Source: a virus
Taxonomy: Duplodnaviria; Heunggongvirae; Uroviricota; Caudoviricetes
IMG/VR virus record: IMGVR_UViG_2706794690_000005
Length of the DNA stretch: 22,999 bases
Reading direction: 5' to 3' (one strand)
Shown here: piece after piece, positions 1-17,300 of the stretch
Position numbering within the stretch: the stretch's first letter is position 1
Layout: each line of letters opens with the position of its first letter
Notes under the pieces: generated by a model
The model's input: only the letters and a program-made list of their open reading frames with translations
Databases searched by the model: none
Told to the model about the DNA's origin: nothing
Made by a program: the position numbers and the translations under genes

Positions 1-102
1 TTTCATAAGGAACAGTGAAGTAAGATCTAAGAGGAGTTAAATTTTATACAGTATAATCATAATATTGCAGCAAGGTGGTTATAATTGAAAGAATATTTAG
101 AT

Positions 103-1560
103 ATGAATACATCTCATGTAAGAGTTGTTACTCATATGTGTGGGTTCCTGGTTTGGCTCTATAGTCTTTCAATGTTGCCACCAATGGTTGTAGCATTGTT
201 TTATAAAGAAAAAAGCCTGTTCGTTTTCTTTATAACTTTCGTTATATTTTTTTGCATTGGTGGCGGAGCGTGGTATACAACTAAGAAATCTGGCATTCAA
301 TTACGTACCCGTGATGGGTTTATTATAATTGTAATGTTTTGGATTTTGTTTTCTGTTATTAGTGCATTCCCTTTATGGATTGACTCAGAACTTAATTTAA
401 CGTTCATTGATGCTCTGTTTGAAGGGGTTTCTGGAATAACAACAACAGGAGCAACTGTAATTGATGATGTTAGTTCATTACCTCGGGCATATTTGTACTA
501 TCGGTCACAGTTAAATTTTATAGGTGGTTTAGGAGTTATTGTTCTGGCGGTTGCAGTATTGCCATTATTGGGTATTGGTGGTGCAAAGCTTTATCAGTCA
601 GAAATGCCGGGGCCATTTAAGGATGACAAACTCACTCCCCGCCTGGCCGATACGTCACGGACACTGTGGATAACTTATTCTTTATTAGGTATTGCTTGTA
701 TTGTCTGTTATAGACTTGCAGGAATGCCTTTGTTTGATGCTATTTGTCACGGGATTTCCACAGTTTCGCTTGGTGGTTTCTCAACTCATAGCGAGAGTAT
801 CGGATATTTTAATAACTATTTGGTTGAGCTGGTGGCTGGTTCTTTTTCCCTGCTATCGGCTTTCAACTTCACTCTTTGGTATATTGTTATTAGCAGAAAA
901 ACGATAAAACCTTTAATCAGAGATATTGAACTTCGTTTCTTTCTGTTAATAGCCTTAGGGGTGATCATTGTTACCTCTTTCCAGGTCTGGCATATAGGTA
1001 TGTATGACTTGCATGGAAGTTTTATTCATTCGTTTTTTCTTGCCAGCTCCATGCTCACTGATAATGGTTTAGCTACGCAGGATTATGCAAACTGGCCCAC
1101 GCACACGATAGTGTTTTTGCTGTTGTCAAGTTTCTTTGGGGGATGTATAGGTTCAACCTGTGGTGGAATTAAGTCACTTCGATTTCTTATACTTTTCAAA
1201 CAAAGCAAACACGAGATAAATCAGCTTTCTCATCCCAGAGCGTTGTTGAGTGTAAATGTAGGAGGGAAGATAGTTACAGATCGTGTAATGAGGTCTGTAT
1301 GGAGTTTCTTTTTTCTTTATACTCTCTTCACGGTGTTTTTTATACTGGTGTTAAATGGTATGGGATATGATTTTCTTACATCATTTGCAACAGTGGCTGC
1401 ATGTATTAATAATATGGGATTAGGTTTTGGGGCTACTGCATCGTCATTCGGAGTGCTTAATGACATTGCAAAATATTTAATGTGCATAGCTATGATTCTT
1501 GGTCGCCTTGAAATTTATCCTGTTATTATATTGTTTTCAGGTTTTTTTTGGCGCTCCTAA
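103..1560 (+). CDS. trkG: Trk-family potassium uptake membrane protein (TrkG-like), prophage cargo gene
   Basis: 485-codon ORF from ATG 103 (ORF track begins at an upstream TTG at 85); very hydrophobic multi-pass membrane protein with repeated glycine-rich pore-like segments (GITTTGATV, GGLGVIV, LGGFSTH, IGSTCGGI) typical of TrkH/TrkG; markedly AT-rich compared with the rest of the window; matches my recollection of E. coli TrkG, which is carried by the Rac prophage. Confidence 0.8.
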   Translation: MNTSHVRVVTHMCGFLVWLYSLSMLPPMVVALFYKEKSLFVFFITFVIFFCIGGGAWYTTKKSGIQLRTRDGFIIIVMFWILFSVISAFPLWIDSELNLTFIDALFEGVSGITTTGATVIDDVSSLPRAYLYYRSQLNFIGGLGVIVLAVAVLPLLGIGGAKLYQSEMPGPFKDDKLTPRLADTSRTLWITYSLLGIACIVCYRLAGMPLFDAICHGISTVSLGGFSTHSESIGYFNNYLVELVAGSFSLLSAFNFTLWYIVISRKTIKPLIRDIELRFFLLIALGVIIVTSFQVWHIGMYDLHGSFIHSFFLASSMLTDNGLATQDYANWPTHTIVFLLLSSFFGGCIGSTCGGIKSLRFLILFKQSKHEINQLSHPRALLSVNVGGKIVTDRVMRSVWSFFFLYTLFTVFFILVLNGMGYDFLTSFATVAACINNMGLGFGATASSFGVLNDIAKYLMCIAMILGRLEIYPVIILFSGFFWRS

Positions 1561-1697
1561 TATATGGCTGATTTATAATTGTGAGTTTAATATTATGTTG
1601 ACTCACTCATTGATCCAATACCTAACTTTACCAGCAACACCTCCGCCCCCAGTAGCACTGGCTGCTGGGGTGCGTTTTATTCATAAAGCAAGGCTGT

Positions 1698-2486
1698 ATG
1701 AGCGAGAAATTAAAGATAGTCTATCGCCCATTACAAGAATTGTCACCGTATGCGCACAACGCCAGGACGCACAGTACTGAGCAGGTGGCACAACTGGTAG
1801 AAAGTATTAAGCAATTCGGCTGGACTAATCCGGTGCTGATTGACGAAAAGGGCGAAATTATTGCGGGTCACGGTCGTGTTATGGCGGCTGAAATGCTCAA
1901 AATGGATTCTGTTCCGGTCATTGTTCTGTCTGGCCTGACGGATGAGCAGAAAAAGGCGTACCGCCTGGCAGATAATCGCCTGCCGATGAATGCTGGCTGG
2001 GATGAAGATCTGTTGCGGATGGAGCTGTCGGACCTAATCAATGCTGATTTTGATGTCTCCCTGACAGGCTTCATCCCGGCAGAAATTGATGAACTGTTGA
2101 CGGATGTTTTGCCCGGTACAGGAAATGAGGAGGAGCCGTATACGACGAAAATTGATACGCCTGTTTATGAGCCGTCAGGCGGTAAACCGGATATCAGTGA
2201 ACTGTACGACGATACGAAAACTCAGGAGCTGATCAGCCGGATACGTTCGGCGTCCCTTGATCCTGATATTGAGAAATTCCTCCTGTGTGCAGCAGAACGT
2301 CACACGGTGTTTAATTTCAGCAGAATTGCGGACTATTACGCTCATGCCCCCGCTGAAATTCAGTGCCTTTTCGAGGAGTCGGCGCTGGTGATCATTGATT
2401 ATCAGCAGGCTATTGAAAATGGATTTGTCCGAATGACGCAGCGCATGGTGGAGATCATGCATGGCGGGGAGGAGGAATATGCGTGA
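1698..2486 (+). CDS. ParB-like nuclease domain protein (ParB/Srx N-terminal domain, uncharacterised C-terminal region)
   Basis: 262-aa ORF; N-terminal ~90 aa has the ParB N-terminal domain pattern (VYRPLQELSPYAHNARTHS...IIAGHGRVMAAEMLKMDSVPVIVL); stop overlaps the start of the next gene (ATGCGTGA); sits where YnaK-like genes lie in Rac-type prophages. Confidence 0.65.
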   Translation: MSEKLKIVYRPLQELSPYAHNARTHSTEQVAQLVESIKQFGWTNPVLIDEKGEIIAGHGRVMAAEMLKMDSVPVIVLSGLTDEQKKAYRLADNRLPMNAGWDEDLLRMELSDLINADFDVSLTGFIPAEIDELLTDVLPGTGNEEEPYTTKIDTPVYEPSGGKPDISELYDDTKTQELISRIRSASLDPDIEKFLLCAAERHTVFNFSRIADYYAHAPAEIQCLFEESALVIIDYQQAIENGFVRMTQRMVEIMHGGEEEYA

Positions 2487-3411
2487 TGATTTTTGCGCCT
2501 TTATTCTGACTCACGGGCGACCGGACAAAGTTCTGACTTACCGGACGTTGCGTCGTGCTGGCTATACCGGGAAAATTTTTATCGTTGTTGATGATGAAGA
2601 TAAGACACGGCATCAGTACATGGCTGAATTTGGTGAACAGGTGCTGGTATTTTCCAAAGCCGATATTGCTAGTCGTTTTGACGAAGCCGATAATTTTAGT
2701 GACCGCCGCTCAATTTTTTACGCCCGTAATGCCTGTTTCGACCAGGCAAAACTGGTCGGGTGTAAATACTTCATTCAGCTCGATGATGATTATCACGAGT
2801 TCCAGTTTCGGGTGGATCGCAACTATGACCAGGCCTATTTCCCGATAAGGAAACTGGATGAGATCCTTTCTGAAATGCTTGCGTACTACGAATCAATACC
2901 TGCTCTTTCCATCGCTATGTCGCAGGGCGGGGATTTTCTTGGTGACAATGGCGGCCATGCTTCGTGGGTGAAACGCAAGGCAATGAACAGCTTTATCTGT
3001 TCGGTTGATCGACCGTTCTCATTCATGGGGCGCATTAACGAGGATGTGAATACGTACACGAATCTCGGTCGCTGTGGTGAATTGTTTATGACGATCGGTG
3101 CTGTCCAGTTAGGGCAGAAACAGACGCAGAAAAACAGCGGCGGAATGACCGAGCTGTATCTGGATTCCGGAACCTACGTTAAAAGTTTTTACTCCGTCAT
3201 GTATGCGCCGTCGTGCGTAAAAATCTCACTTATGGGTGCCAGTCATAAACGCATTCACCATCAGGTCACCTGGAACAACGCTGCAGTAAAAATCCTTCAC
3301 GAAAAATACAGGAAGAAGACACCCTGCATATCAATGGGGGTGACAAATGATTCCGTATTCGAAAGTCGAGTCTCTGGCAGCGTGCCGGATGACTGCACAA
3401 CAAATCGCTGA
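2479..3411 (+). CDS. hypothetical protein, possible GT-A-like nucleotide-sugar transferase fold (DxD-type motif); function unknown
   Basis: ORF track 2461-3411; preferred start ATG 2479 preceded by GGAGGAGG and overlapping the upstream stop (translational coupling); N-terminal FILTHGRPDK and later hydrophobic stretch followed by DDD (YFIQLDDDY, about 2776-2793) resemble GT-A glycosyltransferase signatures; this is pattern recognition only. Confidence 0.45.
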   Translation: MRDDFCAFILTHGRPDKVLTYRTLRRAGYTGKIFIVVDDEDKTRHQYMAEFGEQVLVFSKADIASRFDEADNFSDRRSIFYARNACFDQAKLVGCKYFIQLDDDYHEFQFRVDRNYDQAYFPIRKLDEILSEMLAYYESIPALSIAMSQGGDFLGDNGGHASWVKRKAMNSFICSVDRPFSFMGRINEDVNTYTNLGRCGELFMTIGAVQLGQKQTQKNSGGMTELYLDSGTYVKSFYSVMYAPSCVKISLMGASHKRIHHQVTWNNAAVKILHEKYRKKTPCISMGVTNDSVFESRVSGSVPDDCTTNR

Positions 3412-3598
3412 CGTTCTGGATGTTGATCTGAACCGACTGAAAGAAAATCGGGAAGCAATGACAGATTTTTATGCGGCCATCCGTAAGGGCAGAGCGAAAG
3501 GTGAAGCCGAGTTACGAGCGGCATTGTTTAAGCTTGCCAGAAAAGGGGATGCCTTTGCTCTGCGCGAACTACTCAGGGTGGATAAAAATCAGGACTAA
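3347..3598 (+). CDS. small helix-turn-helix protein upstream of terminase (hypothetical)
   Basis: 83-aa ORF; alternative start ATG 3389; overlaps the 3' end of the preceding ORF by 23-65 nt; basic C-terminus; directly precedes the terminase small subunit gene. Confidence 0.4.
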   Translation: MIPYSKVESLAACRMTAQQIADVLDVDLNRLKENREAMTDFYAAIRKGRAKGEAELRAALFKLARKGDAFALRELLRVDKNQD

Positions 3599-3601
3599 CT
3601 G

Positions 3602-4696
3602 ATGAGCAGACCGGACTGGGGGGCGTTGCAGCAGGAGTATATTGCTGAATACACCCGCTCCGGTATATCTCCGGTGGCATGGTGTGAAGCAAGGGGACTG
3701 AATTACGCAACAGCCCGTCGTTACATCAAAAAAACTCCGAAAAATGCGCAGACAGAAATGTGCAAAACTGCGCAAAAAAGTGCGCAGAAAAAATCTGCGC
3801 AGACTGCACAAAAGCGGAACGAAAAATCTCAGGAAAAAAAGCCAGTATTCGATGCGGGCCTGAATGAGGGCGACGCGGAGGAATTTTCGTTCTGTCCCGA
3901 TGAATTCGGCATTTCTGACCAGCAGGCTAAGTTTGCGATGCTTGTTGCTCAGGGTAAAAAGCCGACAGAGGCGTACCGACTAGCCGGTTATGAGGGGCAA
4001 GGTGCGACAGCTAACAGCAACGCCAGTCGTATGCTTAGAAATGCCAGGGTTTTTCGCGCTATCAGCTACTTCCGCAATCAGTACCAGAAACGCTATACCG
4101 CAGACCTGGATTTACTAGTGAGTCAGTTGATGGCTATTGTCCTGGCCGACCCCAATCAGCTTGCACAATTTCGCCGTGTTAACTGCCGTTATTGCTGGGG
4201 CGAGAATCATCTCTACCAGTGGCGCGATATAGCAGAATTCGACAAGGCAGCGGCGCAGGCTTCCAGAGATGGCAAACCCGAACCGGAATATGGAGGCCTC
4301 GGCTTTGTTGATAACGCCATACCCAATCCGGACTGCCCGAAGTGCTGCGGTGAGGGAACGGGACAGCTTTATATGGCTGATACCACTCTGCTTGATGGGG
4401 ATGCGCGGCAATTATATGCAGGGGCAAAATTCGGAAAATTCGGCGTTGAGATCCTGCTGGAGGATAAGGCTGCCGCCCGGCGTGAATTGTTGCGTTTGTT
4501 TTCTGCTGGCGGGGCTTTATGTGCAGATAAGCGGCTACGGGAACTGGAAATTGAACGGCGCAGAATGGAAAACCAGAAGCTGCGCAAAGAGATCGAAACG
4601 GTGGAAGATAATGAACATCCCCAGCCTGTGGCGATCAATATTAATGTGGTTGATGCCAGAGTAAGGAGTGATGAAGATGATCTCTCCGACGCTTAA
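3602..4696 (+). CDS. terminase small subunit
   Basis: 364-aa ORF; N-terminal HTH-like region; central segment (KPTEAYRLAGYEGQGATANSNASRMLRNARVFRAISYF) resembles the terminase small subunit (Terminase_2-type) signature; immediately upstream of and overlapping the large terminase gene. Confidence 0.6.
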   Translation: MSRPDWGALQQEYIAEYTRSGISPVAWCEARGLNYATARRYIKKTPKNAQTEMCKTAQKSAQKKSAQTAQKRNEKSQEKKPVFDAGLNEGDAEEFSFCPDEFGISDQQAKFAMLVAQGKKPTEAYRLAGYEGQGATANSNASRMLRNARVFRAISYFRNQYQKRYTADLDLLVSQLMAIVLADPNQLAQFRRVNCRYCWGENHLYQWRDIAEFDKAAAQASRDGKPEPEYGGLGFVDNAIPNPDCPKCCGEGTGQLYMADTTLLDGDARQLYAGAKFGKFGVEILLEDKAAARRELLRLFSAGGALCADKRLRELEIERRRMENQKLRKEIETVEDNEHPQPVAININVVDARVRSDEDDLSDA

Positions 4697-5978
4697 TGTG
4701 CCTCAGGCGCGATTTCTTTCAATGCCCCATAAATTTAAAGCCTATATTGCTGGTTTTGGCTCGGGCAAAACATGGGTTGGGTGTGGCGGCATATGCAAGG
4801 GGATTTGGGAGCATCCAGGTATAAATCAGGGATATTTTGCGCCAACGTATCCCCAAATTCGCGATATTTTTTACCCTACAGTGGAAGAAGTTGCTGCTGA
4901 CTGGGGATTGAACGTAAAAATTAATGAGGGAAATAAAGAGGTTCACTTTTATTACGGACGCCAGTATCGGGGAACCACTATCTGCAGATCGATGGAGAAG
5001 CCACAAACGATCGTCGGTTTCAAAATTGGTAATGCGTTGGTGGATGAACTGGACATTTTGCCGAAGGAAAAAGCCAGAACGGCGTGGCGCAAGATAATTG
5101 CACGTATGCGTTATAAGATTGATGGACTTCGCAACGGTATTGACGTTACAACCACGCCGGAAGGATTCAAATTTGTCTACGAGCAGTTTGTTAAAGCCGT
5201 GCGTGAAAAAACAGAGCTGGCCTCACTGTATGGTCTGGTGCAGGCATCTACTTTCGATAATGAAAAGAACCTGCCAGCAGATTACATTCCTTCGCTTCTT
5301 GAATCATACCCTCCAGAGCTGATTAAAGCCTATCTTCGAGGACAGTTTACTAACCTGACAAGTGGTACTGTTTACCATCAGTTTGACCGGAAACTGAATA
5401 ATTGCGAAGAAGTGGAGCAGCCAGGGGAGCCGATTTATATTGGGATGGATTTTAACGTTGGAAAGATGGCGGGAATCGTCCATGTGCTGCGTTTGGGGCT
5501 TCCATGTGCGGTAACTGAAATCATCAATGCCTACGATACGCCGGATATGATCCGCATCATTAAAGAACGCTTCTGGCTGTATGATGGGAATGATTACCGG
5601 AAAGTGAGGGAAATTTATATTTATCCAGATGCTTCCGGGGATTCCAGAAAATCAAGTAACGCAAGTACGACGGATATAGCCCAGCTTAAGCAGGCTGGTT
5701 TTAACGTTGTGGTGAACAGCTCGAACCCGCCAGTAAAAGATCGCGTTAACTCAATGAATGCAATGTTCTGCAATGCCAATGGTGAGCGTCGCTATAAAGT
5801 TAATGTGAAGCGTTGCCCGTTATATGCCGAATCTCTGGAGCAACAGGTCTGGGATGAGAAGGGGGAGCCTGATAAAAAATCTGGCAATGATCACCCGAAT
5901 GATGCCGGAGGTTATTTCATCGTTAAGCAATTCCCTATTGTCAAACCGACCGGAAGAGTCACATCACTTCGGATTTAA
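4668..5978 (+). CDS. terminase large subunit (ATPase/nuclease)
   Basis: 436-aa ORF; Walker A-like motif GFGSGKT near the N-terminus (about 4749-4772); size and position (after small terminase, before portal) typical; start may be one of ATG 4668/4671/4677. Confidence 0.75.
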   Translation: MMKMISPTLNVPQARFLSMPHKFKAYIAGFGSGKTWVGCGGICKGIWEHPGINQGYFAPTYPQIRDIFYPTVEEVAADWGLNVKINEGNKEVHFYYGRQYRGTTICRSMEKPQTIVGFKIGNALVDELDILPKEKARTAWRKIIARMRYKIDGLRNGIDVTTTPEGFKFVYEQFVKAVREKTELASLYGLVQASTFDNEKNLPADYIPSLLESYPPELIKAYLRGQFTNLTSGTVYHQFDRKLNNCEEVEQPGEPIYIGMDFNVGKMAGIVHVLRLGLPCAVTEIINAYDTPDMIRIIKERFWLYDGNDYRKVREIYIYPDASGDSRKSSNASTTDIAQLKQAGFNVVVNSSNPPVKDRVNSMNAMFCNANGERRYKVNVKRCPLYAESLEQQVWDEKGEPDKKSGNDHPNDAGGYFIVKQFPIVKPTGRVTSLRI

Positions 5979-5980
5979 TT

Positions 5981-7387
5981 ATGGCTGATATATCAACACC
6001 CAACCTCGACTATAACGATATGCTGGAGGCGTGGGATATTAACGACGCACTGATGGGCGGTACGCTTGAAATGCGCAGGCAGGGGGAAAATTATCTCCCA
6101 AAATGGCCTAACGAAGATGAAGACGCTTATAAAAAACGCCTGTCTGTGGCTACGCTACTTCCTGTGTATGAAGAAAGCATCAAGCAAAATATTGGGCGCA
6201 TATTTGCAGAGCCGACAGTATTGAGTGAGGAAACGCCGGCAAAAATCAGGGAATATGCAGAAAATATCGACATGGAGGGGAGCCGACTGGATGTGTGGGC
6301 GCAGCAATTTTTCAGCCTCGCATTTCAGTATGGTGTGGCACATGCGCTGGTGGACTATCCACGAACGGATATGAAAGAGATTCGGACAAAAGCCGATGAA
6401 AACGCGACCGGTGGTCGTCCGTACGTTACGATGCTGAATCCACGCCAGGTTATTGGATGGAAATCGAAAGTTGAAAAAGGGAAAGTTGTTCTCACTGATT
6501 TGCGTATAAAAGAGGTCATCATTATTGATGGTGATGATTTCGGGCAGAAGAAGGTGGAGCAGATCCGCCATATTATGCCCCGTCGAGTTGAAATTTATCG
6601 ACGTAGCGAAGGCACTAATGGCGAATCTGTCTGGACGCTTCATGAGTCATGGAATACCAGCCGTGATGATATTCCTCTGGTAACACTGTACACGAAGAAA
6701 ACAGGATTTATGCGTGGTACACCGCCATTGCTTAATCTTGGCTTGCTGAATATCAAGCACTGGCAAAGCCAGAGCGAGCAGGACAATATTCTTCATGTTG
6801 CCCGCGTTCCATTGCTGGTGGCCTACGGGCTGGACAGGAATGAAGAACTGACGGTTGGTGCATCCACCGCTACGATTTTTGAGGACAGAACAAAAAATGG
6901 CCTCGAATATGTTGAACATAGTGGCGCAGCGATAGAATCTGGCGAAACATCACTTGAGAAGCTGGAAAATCAGATGCGTCATGCCGGCGCTAAACTTCTG
7001 CGTGCTGAAAATACATCCACCAAATCTGTTGATCAGACTAATGAAGAGCGAATGCAGGAAAACTCGCCGCTTTATACAATGGCGAACTCCCTCGAAGATG
7101 CCCTCGATAATATTCTCCAGATAATGGCGGAATGGATCGGAGAGAGTTGCGGTGGCAATGTGGATGTGCGCACTGAACTGGATGTATCTGCCCAGGTGTT
7201 TGACTCATCCTCCGCGCTGGCTGTTCAGTCATTGCGTCAGGGCGGTGATATACGTCAGATTGATGCGGTTCGGGTGTTGCAGGCGTTGAAATTTATCGAT
7301 CAGGATTCCCGTCCAGAGGAAGTGATCGATGAATTAAAAAATCAGAGTGTAATGCTGATGGAAATCAATGATGCAAACCGTGAATGA
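5981..7387 (+). CDS. portal protein
   Basis: 468-aa ORF starting 2 nt after the terminase large subunit stop; acidic C-terminus; canonical position between terminase and head morphogenesis genes. Confidence 0.65.
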   Translation: MADISTPNLDYNDMLEAWDINDALMGGTLEMRRQGENYLPKWPNEDEDAYKKRLSVATLLPVYEESIKQNIGRIFAEPTVLSEETPAKIREYAENIDMEGSRLDVWAQQFFSLAFQYGVAHALVDYPRTDMKEIRTKADENATGGRPYVTMLNPRQVIGWKSKVEKGKVVLTDLRIKEVIIIDGDDFGQKKVEQIRHIMPRRVEIYRRSEGTNGESVWTLHESWNTSRDDIPLVTLYTKKTGFMRGTPPLLNLGLLNIKHWQSQSEQDNILHVARVPLLVAYGLDRNEELTVGASTATIFEDRTKNGLEYVEHSGAAIESGETSLEKLENQMRHAGAKLLRAENTSTKSVDQTNEERMQENSPLYTMANSLEDALDNILQIMAEWIGESCGGNVDVRTELDVSAQVFDSSSALAVQSLRQGGDIRQIDAVRVLQALKFIDQDSRPEEVIDELKNQSVMLMEINDANRE

Positions 7388-13398: not shown

Positions 13399-13860
13399 AT
13401 GAGGTTATGGATGTTTATTCTTAATCAGAAAATTATCATTGGTGGAGAACGCTGGTTTACGCCAATGAAGGACTTAAAACCTGTAGACGGGTTAAAACTG
13501 TTGGTGGCAAGCAGCGATAACGATCAGTATCGCTCCCGTAATGCATTAATCCGTCGCCACATTGAGAAAATGGATGCCAGTTTGCACGTCGGAACGAAGG
13601 AGTTTGATATTTCAAAGGTTTCCGAGGTGGATTCTGTTGATGATTTACTCATTGATAATGCCGCTCGTTATCTGCTGAAAGACTGGAAAGGGGTTGGTGA
13701 ACTGGTTAATGGTGTTGAGGTTGCACTGGAATATACGGCAGAACGAGGGATCGCGCTGCTTAAGCAGAATCCAGAGTTGTACTGGCAGATCCTTGCAGAA
13801 GCAGCCAGCATCGCCCAGGGTAAAGAGCAGCAGAAGCAGGATACGATAAAAAAGCCATAG
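13399..13860 (+). CDS. tail assembly chaperone (lambda gpG-like)
   Basis: 153-aa ORF between major tail and tape measure genes; ends ...TIKKP with a slippery A_AAA_AAG heptamer four codons before its stop. Confidence 0.55.
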   Translation: MRLWMFILNQKIIIGGERWFTPMKDLKPVDGLKLLVASSDNDQYRSRNALIRRHIEKMDASLHVGTKEFDISKVSEVDSVDDLLIDNAARYLLKDWKGVGELVNGVEVALEYTAERGIALLKQNPELYWQILAEAASIAQGKEQQKQDTIKKP

Positions 13861-14168
13861 CTGCCCAGCGGTGGTTATCGGAGTTCGGGGGAGAAAGGGG
13901 GGAAAAGGCAAGATGGAAGCGAGAAAAACTCAGGTTGCCACCGATACCGGAACCAGAAATAGACCCGGTGCTTAAGGAGTTGTTGTACGCCTATTCGGTA
14001 ATATCCCGTGCCCGACGTTATGCTGGAATGGCTGGGGTGCCTTTGCCTTTATCTCTGACAGAGATAAATGAATATTTAGCCACTCATCCGGTATTGATTG
14101 AGCGCGATGAATTTGAAGCAGTGATCTTTGCACTGGATGACCAGTATTTTCAGGAGCAGTGTGTGTAG
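13399..14168 (+). CDS. predicted frameshift fusion tail assembly chaperone (lambda gpGT-like), made by -1 slip at 13848-13854
   Basis: downstream ORF 13935-14168 is in the -1 frame relative to 13399-13860 and that frame is open from the slippery site; mirrors the conserved G/GT arrangement upstream of tape measure genes in long-tailed phages. Confidence 0.45.
13848..13854 (+). promoter_or_regulatory. putative -1 programmed ribosomal frameshift site (A_AAA_AAG slippery heptamer)
   Basis: ATA AAA AAG in the zero frame at 13846-13854; the -1 frame is open without stops from the heptamer to the stop at 14168 (checked codon by codon). Confidence 0.55.
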
Positions 14169-14288
14169 TTGTTAATTACGTACACTCTGTTACAGAGATG
14201 TGATGGTGTCTTTAATTAAATCGATGATGCTCCTGGAGAAAAGCATTGCGTGGCCTCGTAATCGCTATATCTACTATTATGTCGCCTG

Positions 14289-14314
14289 AAACCCACTTCG
14301 CGGTGGGTTTTTTG
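14289..14314 (+). terminator. terminator-like hairpin (possible attenuator) just upstream of the tape measure gene
   Basis: AAACCCAC-TTCGCG-GTGGGTTT hairpin followed by a T-run, ending about 20 nt before the tape measure ATG (14334) and its GGAG Shine-Dalgarno (14321-14324). Confidence 0.35.
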
Positions 14315-14333
14315 TTGTCAGGAGTTTTAATAA

Positions 14334-17300
14334 ATGGCAGAGCAAACCTCGCGTCTCGCAATAATTATTGATAGCACTGGAGCGAAAAATAATGCTGACA
14401 ATCTGACCTCCTCATTAGTCAAAATGACGCAGGCTGGGGAAACTGCTGCAAATAGCGCAGGGAAAGTGACTAAGGCAACAGAAGATGAGAAGAACGCGCT
14501 CGCAAAATTAAAAGCAGCTATTGATCCAGTTGGTGCCGCAATTGATACTGTCGGTCGACGCTATTCTGAATTAAAGAAATTTTTCGATAAAGGGCTTATT
14601 GATAAAGAAGAATATGAATTTCTTGTCCGTAAACTTAATGAAACCACAGAGGAATTGAGCGGGGTTGCGCAAGCGCAGAGAGAAGCCGAGAAGGCCGGAA
14701 AACTTGCTGCCGCCCAGCAGGAAGCGCAGGCTCAGGCCTTTCAAAGAATGCTGGACAAGATCGACCCTCTGGCTGCGGCGCTAAGAAATCTTGAACAACA
14801 GCATGATGAACTTAATGCTGCGTTTGCATCCGGGAAAATAAATGGTTCTCAGTTTGAGAATTATAGCCGAAAAATACAGGAAACACGGCGAGAGCTTACC
14901 GGAGAGGCTCAGGCAGAGCGAGAAGCAGCAAAAGCGCATGATGAACAGGTTGTTGCTTTGCAACGTCTGATTGCTCAACTTGATCCTGTCGGAACTGCTT
15001 TTAATCGTCTGGTAGAACAACAGAAACAGCTCAATGAAGCAAAAGCTAAGGGGATGCTTTCTCCTGAAATGTATGAGGAGCTTTCTGGAAAACTTCGTGC
15101 TATGCGGAGTGAGCTTGAGGTTACTCAATCACAATTAAGCAAAACCGGAATGTCGGCAAAACAAACGGCTTTTGCTATGCGCATGTTGCCTGTACAAATG
15201 ACGGATATTGTTGTTGGGTTGTCCACTGGTCAGTCGCCATTTATGGTGTTAATGCAGCAGGGCGGCCAGCTAAAAGATATGTTCGGTGGGATTGGCCCGG
15301 CGATCAAAGGTGTAGGTTCTTATGTGCTGGGATTAATTAATCCTTTTACCCTGGCCGCAGCAGCCGTTGGGGTCTTAGGACTGGCTTACTATAAAGGCTC
15401 TCAGGAGCAGGACGAATTTAATAAATCTCTTATTCTTACCGGAAATCAGTTGGGGACAACCAGCGGGCAATTGGGCGATATAGCTCAACGTGCCGGGAAT
15501 GCGGCTGATTCGACAACTGGTGCTGCGGCGGCAGTATTAAATCAGCTTGTGCGTTCGGGAAAGGTAGCGAGCAGTTCGCTGGAGCAAGTGACGACAGCGA
15601 TAGTAAAAACGAGCGAAGTAACAGGAATATCAACCGAACAACTGGTTAATGACTTCAATGAAATTGCAAAGGATCCTGTCAGTGCCATATCAAAACTTAA
15701 TGATCAGTACCATTTTCTGACACTTGCGACTTATAACCAGATTAAGGCGCTACAGGATGAAGGGAACCAGCAGGAGGCCGCCCGCATTGCGACAGAAGAA
15801 TACTCATCCTCAATGATCCAGCGCACCAACCAGATTAAAGAAAATCTTGGTTATCTTGAGACTGCATGGAAAGCTGTCGCAGACTCCGCAAAATGGGCAT
15901 GGGATTCCATGCTGGATATTGGCCGTGAGGCCTCCCTTGATCAAAAAATCTCAGATGTTCTCCGTCAAATTGATGAAATAGAAAAAAATACCCGACCCGG
16001 AGTTTTCGGGTTAGGTGGCATTGGAGATGGCGGAGCTCAAAATAAAAGGCTGGCACGATTAAAGCAGCAATTGGGCGTACTTCAAGCAGAAAAAATTGCT
16101 CAGGACGTACTAAATTCATCAATAAACGATTACAACAAGCGACAACAGGAAGGAATTGAACTCAGACAGAGAGCAGATGCCTTTTCAAAACAATATCAGA
16201 CCCGGGAGCAGCAGAGAGCTAGTGAACTTGCAAAACTGGAAAAGCTAAAGAATCAGTATTCAAAGGAAGAATATAATAATCTTATCGCTCAAATAAATGA
16301 GCGTTATAAAGATCCAAAGCAACCAAAGGCGAAAGGTTATTCTGATGATGCAGCCCAACGAATGATTGATCATCTGAATCAACAGAATGCGTTACTAAGT
16401 TCACAAGCTGAGTTGACCGTTAAATTAAGTTCCTCTGAACAGGAACTGGTTAAGTGGCGTCAGCGGATTGCCGACCTAGAGTCACGACCATCATCGAAAT
16501 TAACCCAGGATCAGAAATCGCTTCTCTTACACCGGGAAGAAATAACCACGTTGATGGAGAAAAATGTTGCGATTGAAAAAAATAACAGGCTAATCAAGGA
16601 ATCCGCCGAAATAACAGCATGGCGTGATTCATTGCAGGCTTCGATTGATAATCGTCAGCAGGGGTATGATATTCAGATTGCTGGTTATGGGGTTGGCGAT
16701 AAAAATCAGCAACGCCAGCAGGAATTACTGCGGATTGAACATGGATATAACAATCAGCGTCTGCAACTTGAACGTGACTATGCAGATAAATCCCGTGGAA
16801 TGTCAGATCATGTTTTTCAAGAGAAAATGCAGGCTCTGAATGATGCTCTGGAACGGGAAAAAGAAATTGTCAGACAGAAAAACGAGCAGCTCGATATTCA
16901 GGCAGGAGACTGGGTTAGTGGTGCCTCCCAGGGATTCAATAACTGGCTGGATGACACTAAGGATATCAGTGAGCAGATAAAATCAACCACGACTCAGATG
17001 TTTGATGGGATGACCGATGCGCTGGGTGATTTTGTCACGACAGGCAAGGCAAATTTTCGTTCTTTCGCTACTTCCGTGATTTCGGATCTTAGTCGAATAG
17101 CATTAAAGGCTTCAATTACTGGGATTTTCGACAGCATTAGTAACAGTTCTTCTGGGGGGATTTTAGGAACTATCGGGAGTGCTATTAGTAAATTTATTCC
17201 GAATGCAAAGGGCGGTGTTTATGAGTCTCCGTCATTGAGCACGTATTCGAACGGTATTTATGATTCCCCGCAATTTTTTGCTTTTGCAAAAGGGGCTGGT

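Follow-up and report, generated by a model that had tools for sequence, protein, structure and literature searches.

We examined a two-gene cassette, formed by ynaK (gene 1) and the gene which follows it (gene 2), in IMG/VR virus record IMGVR_UViG_2706794690_000005, a stretch of 22,999 nucleotides (the window, to which all positions refer) that we identified as a Rac-like lambdoid prophage of E. coli. Several complete genomes contain region 1560-3600 at 100 % identity, and a copy covering at least 80 % of it at an identity of 95 % or more occurs in at least 867 of the 5,426 complete E. coli genomes. On an identical chromosome the gene order runs from intR to a Q-like DUF1133 gene, the lysis genes, trkG, ynaK, a gene with the Prokaryotic Genome Annotation Pipeline (PGAP) product name 'GREB1-related protein' (gene 2), a small open reading frame (ORF), terS, terL and the portal, head and tail genes. 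An earlier inspection of the DNA by itself, here termed the sequence-only reading, had described a cassette of two genes between trkG and the packaging genes; both ORFs are intact and lie in the order trkG-ynaK-gene 2-small ORF-terS-terL, with the following features.

1698-2486, + strand: gene 1, full-length YnaK (262 amino acids), an intact ORF with a ParB/Srx N-domain, a disordered linker and a conserved C-terminal module
1698-2102, + strand: ParB/Srx (ParB-CTPase fold) N-domain of YnaK, residues 1-135
2133-2441, + strand: C-terminal module of YnaK, residues 146-248
2468-2486, + strand: translational-coupling junction, with Shine-Dalgarno sequence GGAGGAGG (2468-2475), gene 2 ATG (2479-2481) and gene 1 TGA (2484-2486)
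2479-3411, + strand: gene 2, a TAGT-family GT-A glycosyltransferase (310 amino acids), an intact ORF

The ATG of gene 2 sits within ATGCGTGA and overlaps the stop of gene 1 behind a strong Shine-Dalgarno sequence, just as the sequence-only reading had stated. Position 2479 is the start of gene 2, its homologues all beginning MR(D/N)DF and leaving unused an in-frame upstream ATG at 2461. The arrangement of the two genes is not a matter of chance, since they have Pfam and PHROG matches and the same overlapping order recurs in nearly all of the approximately 130 related loci described below.

Gene 2 matches the TET-associated glycosyltransferase family (TAGT, Pfam PF20691) with 118.9 bits over residues 8-222 (cut-off 27.5, E 3.7e-34), as do all of its listed homologues. 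Loci encoding gene 2 relatives were collected from IMG/VR, a one-genome-per-species set and metagenomes, the second of which contributed 45 loci from Pseudomonadota, Bacteroidota, Bacillota, Chlorobiota, Acidobacteriota, Saccharibacteria and others. The sequence-only reading had noted an uncharacterised C-terminal extension in gene 1, for which there is indeed neither a Pfam family nor a solved structural relative, and in which we recognised a conserved module composed of a linear motif YTxKIxxPxYEP (2139-2174), a small helical domain (AAxRHxVFNF, IAxYYAHA) and a strand-like SALVIID segment. In every one of the ~130 loci with upstream sequence the ORF directly upstream of the TAGT gene encodes a homologue of this module (phmmer 1e-15 to 1e-63), making it the obligate partner of this TAGT clade wherever such sequence exists, and in most of the loci the end of the partner gene and the beginning of the TAGT gene share 8 or 11 nucleotides. 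Three loci only seem to break the rule: L122 has a tandem TAGT duplication with the partner before the first copy, L126 has a frameshift, and the L125 contig starts inside the TAGT gene. Cultured viruses carrying the pair include Lactobacillus phage phi jlb1, the archaeal halovirus HHTV-2, the lytic Lactobacillus phage c5, where the two are the first genes after cos, and a Porphyromonas phage with a TAGT merely 27 % identical, yet with a partner scoring 7.5e-15 against the module profile. The upstream partner in Vibrio phage pv27 (191 kb), of 140 amino acids, has the linker motif and the C-terminal domain (5.7e-31) and lacks the ParB domain. The T4-like Aeromonas phage 65 encodes a distant TAGT with no partner of this C-terminal-module type.

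Within 61 non-redundant partners the C-terminal module, with the consensus YTxKIxxPxYEP...ELYD...FLxxAAxRHTVFNFxKIADYYAHA...SALVIID...AIExGF, is conserved far better than the ParB domain. Mean pairwise identity among 28 diverse pairs amounted to 48 % in the module and 52 % in TAGT, against 34 % in the N-domain, and in the same pairs distances between modules followed those between TAGTs more closely (r = 0.63) than did those between N-domains (r = 0.33). An exhaustive phmmer search with the module gave 1,184 cluster representatives; among the best 150 of these the module was always C-terminal, in proteins of ~130-430 amino acids, and none was a TAGT fusion. The two proteins also differ in charge, with a median isoelectric point of 4.5-4.7 for the acidic partner and 8.9 for the basic TAGT (46 pairs).

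One protein, P0081, has the C-terminal module joined to TAGT by a natural frameshift and might stand in as a single chain for models of the complex. Six long ORFs considered as informative fusions (P0004, P0008, P0021, P0040, P0123 and P0124) were rejected as deletion chimeras with terS, portal or tail genes that reflect prophage decay. In many chimeric ORFs of public assemblies YnaK or TAGT runs on in frame into a terS, portal or tail gene (P0008, P0034-P0037, P0123), a pattern which indicates recurrent internal deletions in decaying Rac-like prophages. In the duplicated locus of a Hyphomonadaceae metagenome-assembled genome (L122 2587-6137), one gene with ParB domain and C-terminal module is followed by tandem TAGT paralogues at 3587-4441 and 5268-6137, an arrangement that recalls the glycosyltransferases which act in sequence to assemble di-saccharides on phage DNA. 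The Bacteroides version of the pair is very common, its partner protein being found in 2,707 blocks of a contig collection. In Bacteroides prophages (L136-L138 1013-6146) an SNF2-N6_N4 methyltransferase fusion and a PAPS-reductase-like gene are found 4-9 kb upstream of the pair, and both are candidates for other DNA-modification functions of the same phage.

The hydrophobic stretch and DDD of gene 2 had been likened in the sequence-only reading to GT-A nucleotide-sugar transferases, and profile and structure searches placed the protein in that fold, not in an unrelated one. Its active-site pattern R...DDD...ED is made up of R14, the DDD of residues 102-104 (2782-2790, within YFIQLDDDY) and NEDV at 187-190 (3037-3048), and R14, D102-D104 and E188/D189 are invariant in TAGT homologues. 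Motifs of the R14/DDD/ED type have been reported for DNA-glycosylating phage GT-A enzymes and the base-J glucosyltransferase, and the characterised TAGT members add sugar to hydroxymethylcytosine or glucosyl-hydroxymethylcytosine in DNA (PMC13216743; bioRxiv 10.1101/2023.12.21.572611). With its Pfam family, fold and motif gene 2 resembles these enzymes and falls in the 'solitary TAGT' class, which accounts for 288 of 753 glycosyltransferase-encoding phage genomes and is functionally undefined; in ~65 % of the contigs mined for glycosyltransferases the GT-A/TAGT gene lies far from any hydroxymethylase or TET enzyme (PMC13216743; bioRxiv 10.1101/2023.12.21.572611). The gene 2 clade differs from the enzymes of both of these reports in having an obligate partner protein, which neither describes.

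Gene 2 also matches PHROG 842 (7.5e-104), which is labelled as the beta-glucosyl-HMC-alpha-glucosyltransferase of phages T2 and T6. We rejected this identity and regard the PHROG name as an annotation transfer: a tblastn search of 50,697 phage records with the gene 2 TAGT did not retrieve T2 or T6, its sole T4-like matches, ~22 % identical, being Aeromonas phage 65 (E 6e-5) and phages closely related to it, and the prophage, unlike T2 and T6, has no pathway to 5-hydroxymethylcytosine (5hmC) or 5-hydroxymethyluracil (5hmU) and no alpha- or beta-glucosyltransferase. Phage records nevertheless name gene 2 after the T-even enzyme and gene 1 'partitioning protein' or 'chromosome partitioning protein'.

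YnaK matches PHROG 620 over its full length (1.7e-90) and exceeds slightly the cut-off of Pfam PF02195 ParB_N (29.3 bits, cut-off 26.3); its PGAP product name is 'ynaK: ParB/Srx family N-terminal domain-containing protein'. In an AlphaFold2 (AF2) model built on an input alignment of 63 sequences, residues 1-135 adopt the ParB-CTPase fold with confidence (predicted local distance difference test, pLDDT, ~90), bearing out the ParB/Srx-type domain of the sequence-only reading; the linker (137-165) is disordered, the C-terminal helical domain (166-235) is confident (pLDDT 87-96), the tail is of low confidence, and no helix-turn-helix (HTH) domain was seen in the model. Nucleotide-contacting residues are kept at N21/R23 (1758-1766), S36, R60 of the GHGR segment, whose codons we place at 1866-1877, and D92/N93 (1971-1976). 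R23 (Box I Arg), R60 (Box II, the last Arg of GERR) and N93 (Box III Asn) align with QPR, GERR and EN of Spo0J and are invariant or at least 90 % conserved in the 63 homologues. The arginine motif, whose retention the sequence-only reading had put in question, is thus preserved in part: these three residues stand, while GHGR has His for the catalytic Glu of canonical GERR and Gly for its first Arg. Because of the former YnaK is a plausible binder of nucleoside triphosphates (NTPs), and because of the latter it is not a canonical CTP-hydrolysing partition ParB. We rejected a role in partition on further grounds, as YnaK scores 38.1 against TIGR00180, under the cut-off of 58.45, and differs from partition ParB proteins (Spo0J/ParB) and PadC in being acidic and HTH-less and in having terminase neighbours instead of a ParA/parS context. 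The lowest AF2 confidence falls on the most conserved segments of both proteins (YnaK 137-165 and 238-262, TAGT 184-200 and 218-242), which may fold on binding, a shallow TAGT alignment being the other possible cause.

In 433 phage records, of which many are annotated as DNA methyltransferases, there is an N-terminal module that shares 40-53 % identity with residues 1-140 of YnaK, and it is through this ParB region only that YnaK matches PHROG 498 (DNA methyltransferase, 6.1e-51) and PADLOC MTase_II (1.5e-38, residues 10-144). The N-domain is thus the same module as that of the ParB_N-DNA methyltransferase fusions (phrog_498; PF02195 + PF01555). In those fusions however the catalytic domain is covalently attached and uses S-adenosylmethionine, whereas gene 2 is a separate glycosyltransferase subunit. 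Serving a DNA-modifying enzyme would be the role common to the ParB module of the fusions and of YnaK. A 2025 survey found that ParB-CTPase folds of prophages often form fusions with DNA methyltransferases and are able to bind various NTPs; it mentions neither glycosyltransferases nor YnaK (PMC12704722).

A closer parallel in architecture is provided by phage ParB-like proteins without a DNA-binding domain, which cognate thymine dioxygenases (5mYOX) need for activity on double-stranded DNA; in these proteins a linker joins a nucleotide-binding domain to a C-terminal domain, neither end can be spared and each pairs specifically with its cognate enzyme (O'Toole et al., PNAS 2026, PMC13229309). 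YnaK likewise adjoins its enzyme, lacks an HTH and has a disordered linker between its nucleotide-binding N-domain and its C-terminal domain, and the co-divergence of its C-terminal module with TAGT recalls the cognate pairing of the dioxygenases, although the likeness is one of architecture. The enzymes themselves differ, 5mYOX being an Fe(II)/2-oxoglutarate dioxygenase and gene 2 a GT-A glycosyltransferase, and in YnaK the catalytic Glu of GERR has given way to His.

The surroundings of the pair include the following features.

1647-1670, + strand: terminator-like G+C-rich hairpin, then a T-run, between trkG and ynaK
3347-3598, + strand: orf83, an 83-amino-acid ORF overlapping the 3' end of gene 2 (context only)
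3602-4696, + strand: terS (364 amino acids)
4668-5978, + strand: terL

The hairpin has a 10-bp stem with 7 GC pairs and the tail TGCGTTTTAT, and a search of 1560-1698 gave no sigma-70-like promoter; the pair would therefore be expected on a read-through, Q-antiterminated late transcript. The position of the hairpin right behind the trkG moron fits trkG being an autonomous insert in the late operon. The pair itself is independent of trkG, a point raised by the sequence-only reading, as trkG is missing from 19 of 58 close enterobacterial loci and from all 69 more distant ones. These observations bear on a role in prophage defence or superinfection exclusion in the lysogen, or in action on nucleotides or other small molecules, a reading to which we assign a very low probability. 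Defence is opposed by the lack of a promoter-like site behind a terminator-like hairpin, by the close loci without trkG, and by the presence of the pair in the obligately lytic phages c5 and pv27 and in a late or packaging context (in pv27, among replication genes). PADLOC moreover has no match for gene 2 and matches gene 1 solely via the ParB module shared with methyltransferases, and on these grounds and the missing promoter a defence role was rejected.

In approximately eight Pfam-annotated or curated neighbourhoods, excepting HHTV-2 and pv27, the pair lies directly upstream of terS/terL, next to at least five terminase families (Terminase_2; Terminase_4 + TerL; GpA; GP3_package + Terminase_6N/3; DUF5681 + Terminase_3). 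This strikingly constant site across unrelated terminases, which in c5 is beside cos, would suit an accessory of packaging that marks or processes DNA for the terminase (for example by recognition or capping of ends or of pac/cos through transfer to a terminal hydroxyl or phosphate) or regulates the terminase, instead of modifying the whole genome for protection. DNA ends carry a hydroxyl in any genome, and the enterobacterial pair moves with orf83 and the 5' part of terS even where terL differs. However the pair is missing from most phages that use these terminase types, this TAGT clade being present in just 40 of the 50,697 phage records; the pv27 genes lie among replication genes and the HHTV-2 pair ~3 kb upstream of terL; and the N-domain is shared at 40-53 % identity with the ParB-methyltransferase fusions which, to our knowledge, usually stand before the terminase and have no packaging role. 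We consider a packaging accessory improbable. The same rarity led us to reject a core packaging component, and agrees with the sequence-only reading, in which the pair was an accessory rather than a packaging gene set present in all relatives.

orf83 overlaps the last 65 nucleotides of gene 2 and is found with the pair in 57 of 61 close loci, also where terL is a different one. It matches an internal part of the terminase small-subunit phrog_309 (positions 145-218 of 319, 8.3e-23) and, together with terS (phrog_51, 7.1e-75), makes two terS-like genes in a row. Residues ~289-310 of gene 2 (3343-3408) form an enterobacterial C-terminal extension of ~22 residues that is missing from the homologues of other genera and has very low model confidence; it may be a by-product of the overlapping orf83 frame.

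The fold-level interpretation given in the sequence-only reading, a ParB-like module paired with a transferase-like enzyme, is supported by the ParB/Srx and TAGT family memberships and by the recurrence of the overlapping pair. Our best reading, which we hold tentatively and judge to fall a little short of an even chance, is a two-subunit glycosyltransferase that is expressed late and targets phage DNA before it is packaged. A two-subunit enzyme is favoured because of the obligate module, the gene overlap, the co-divergence (r = 0.63 vs 0.33) and the complementary charges. A DNA-directed one is favoured because characterised members of the TAGT family, with the same invariant motifs, act on phage DNA; the partner is linked to DNA by the match of its N-domain to the ParB modules of DNA methyltransferases and by the 5mYOX/ParB precedent. 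A late role follows from the terminase-adjacent position, the lack of an own promoter and the hairpin upstream. YnaK and the TAGT enzyme would be made late in the lytic cycle from the Q-dependent transcript, just ahead of the terminase, and form a physical complex. The acidic partner would grip the enzyme through its C-terminal module (YTxKIxxPxYEP, the helical domain and the SALVIID strand), binding or completing it, while the basic GT-A enzyme would transfer a sugar from a nucleotide-sugar with a DDD-bound metal. The ParB/Srx domain, present in most versions, may act as an optional nucleotide-gated loader that loads or retains the enzyme on double-stranded DNA, by analogy with the ParB-like activators of the phage thymine dioxygenases. 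The product would be sugar-modified phage DNA, formed before or during packaging and protective against host nucleases.

Several points weigh against this reading. Its weak point is that the sole acceptors known for the enzyme family are absent: no TET/JBP dioxygenase, hydroxymethylase or DNA methyltransferase is found in the whole Rac-like prophage, and no TET_JBP or thymidylate-synthase-like gene within 8-10 kb in the other Pfam-annotated neighbourhoods. We know of no glycosyltransferase that modifies canonical DNA, and the eukaryotic family member GREB1 glycosylates protein. The partner is strongly acidic with no recognisable DNA-binding domain, and the AF2 model of gene 2 reaches only a pLDDT of 68.6. 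The literature yielded no experimental data on the DNA of any phage carrying the pair, and nothing relevant on DNA modification in HHTV-2 or by a ParB-glycosyltransferase pair. In the 100 of 191 kb of pv27 that were read no hydroxymethylase is annotated, and a thymidylate synthase is present beside a dihydrofolate reductase and a PurZ-like gene. That PurZ-like gene, annotated '2-aminooxy adenylosuccinate synthetase', and an HD phosphohydrolase (L147 30930-32042, L146 24857-26251) suggest a 2-aminoadenine genome. Another phage with the pair has two Glycos_transf_2 genes just downstream of its capsid gene (L003 15837-16894, L004 8659-9716), possibly with a separate virion- or DNA-glycosylation function.

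Since neither E. coli nor the other hosts have a source of 5hmC or 5hmU, the acceptor would have to be universally available, either canonical DNA, which is unprecedented, or a target other than DNA. That the pair places sugar, without any hydroxymethylation, on such a universal substrate, whether canonical DNA (at an exocyclic amine, the phosphate backbone or a terminal hydroxyl) or the partner's invariant tyrosine, seems to us possible though doubtful. On balance unlikely is a protein target in general, which might be the partner itself, at an invariant Tyr or Thr (Y148, T149, Y157) of the disordered YTxKIxxPxYEP motif, or else a protein of the virion or of packaging. Glycosylation of the partner would resemble that of glycogenin, which attaches sugar to its own tyrosine; gene 2 however matches glycogenin no better than it does many other GT-A enzymes. 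The terminase, portal and capsid families vary between loci, so that no shared virion substrate stands out, and the partner's N-domain is the module that is fused to DNA methyltransferases. All characterised viral TAGT members, moreover, act on DNA (PMC13216743; bioRxiv 10.1101/2023.12.21.572611).

In the K-12 Rac prophage the sequence-only reading had named a short remnant and a pseudogene as the counterparts of the two genes. K-12 matches window positions 20-1951 (99.5 %) and then 13509-15268 (99.9 %), with breakpoints at 1951/1952 and 13508/13509, so that a deletion of 11.6 kb took YnaK past approximately residue 85, gene 2, the terminase, portal and head genes and part of the tail genes. 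The remnant is accordingly a YnaK stump; the pseudogene ydaY, by contrast, derives from the tail region and is no counterpart of gene 2, which was deleted outright. On a chromosome 100 % identical to the window, PGAP annotates the first 86 codons (L001 20139-20396, window 1698-1955) as a ynaK pseudogene 'missing C-terminus' despite the intact 262-codon ORF, leaving the module at 2133-2441 unannotated in at least one RefSeq record. We suspect that this truncation call stems from a reference protein matching just the N-terminal part.

Relative to the papers cited above, what is new is that this TAGT clade never occurs without a specific, unannotated module of ~100 residues, and that the ParB domain on this module is the same one that phages fuse to DNA methyltransferases. 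The TAGT family is said to originate from Iyer et al. 2013, to whom ParB proteins in hypermodification clusters are reportedly also due, and a ParB-TAGT linkage may already be noted there. The cassette provides an intact example of the unassigned solitary TAGT class in E. coli, a tractable host. If DNA is glycosylated, it would represent a route of DNA glycosylation without hydroxymethyl-pyrimidines, would extend ParB-activated DNA modification to a second enzyme class and might offer an enzymatic tool for DNA labelling; were canonical DNA the acceptor, a new DNA-glycosylation chemistry would reside in roughly one in six E. coli genomes. A protein target would mean a new phage post-translational system and, were it the tyrosine of the partner, a glycogenin-like, self-primed glyco-ParB. 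With either canonical DNA or this tyrosine as acceptor, the pair would constitute a new class of two-component phage glycosyltransferase.

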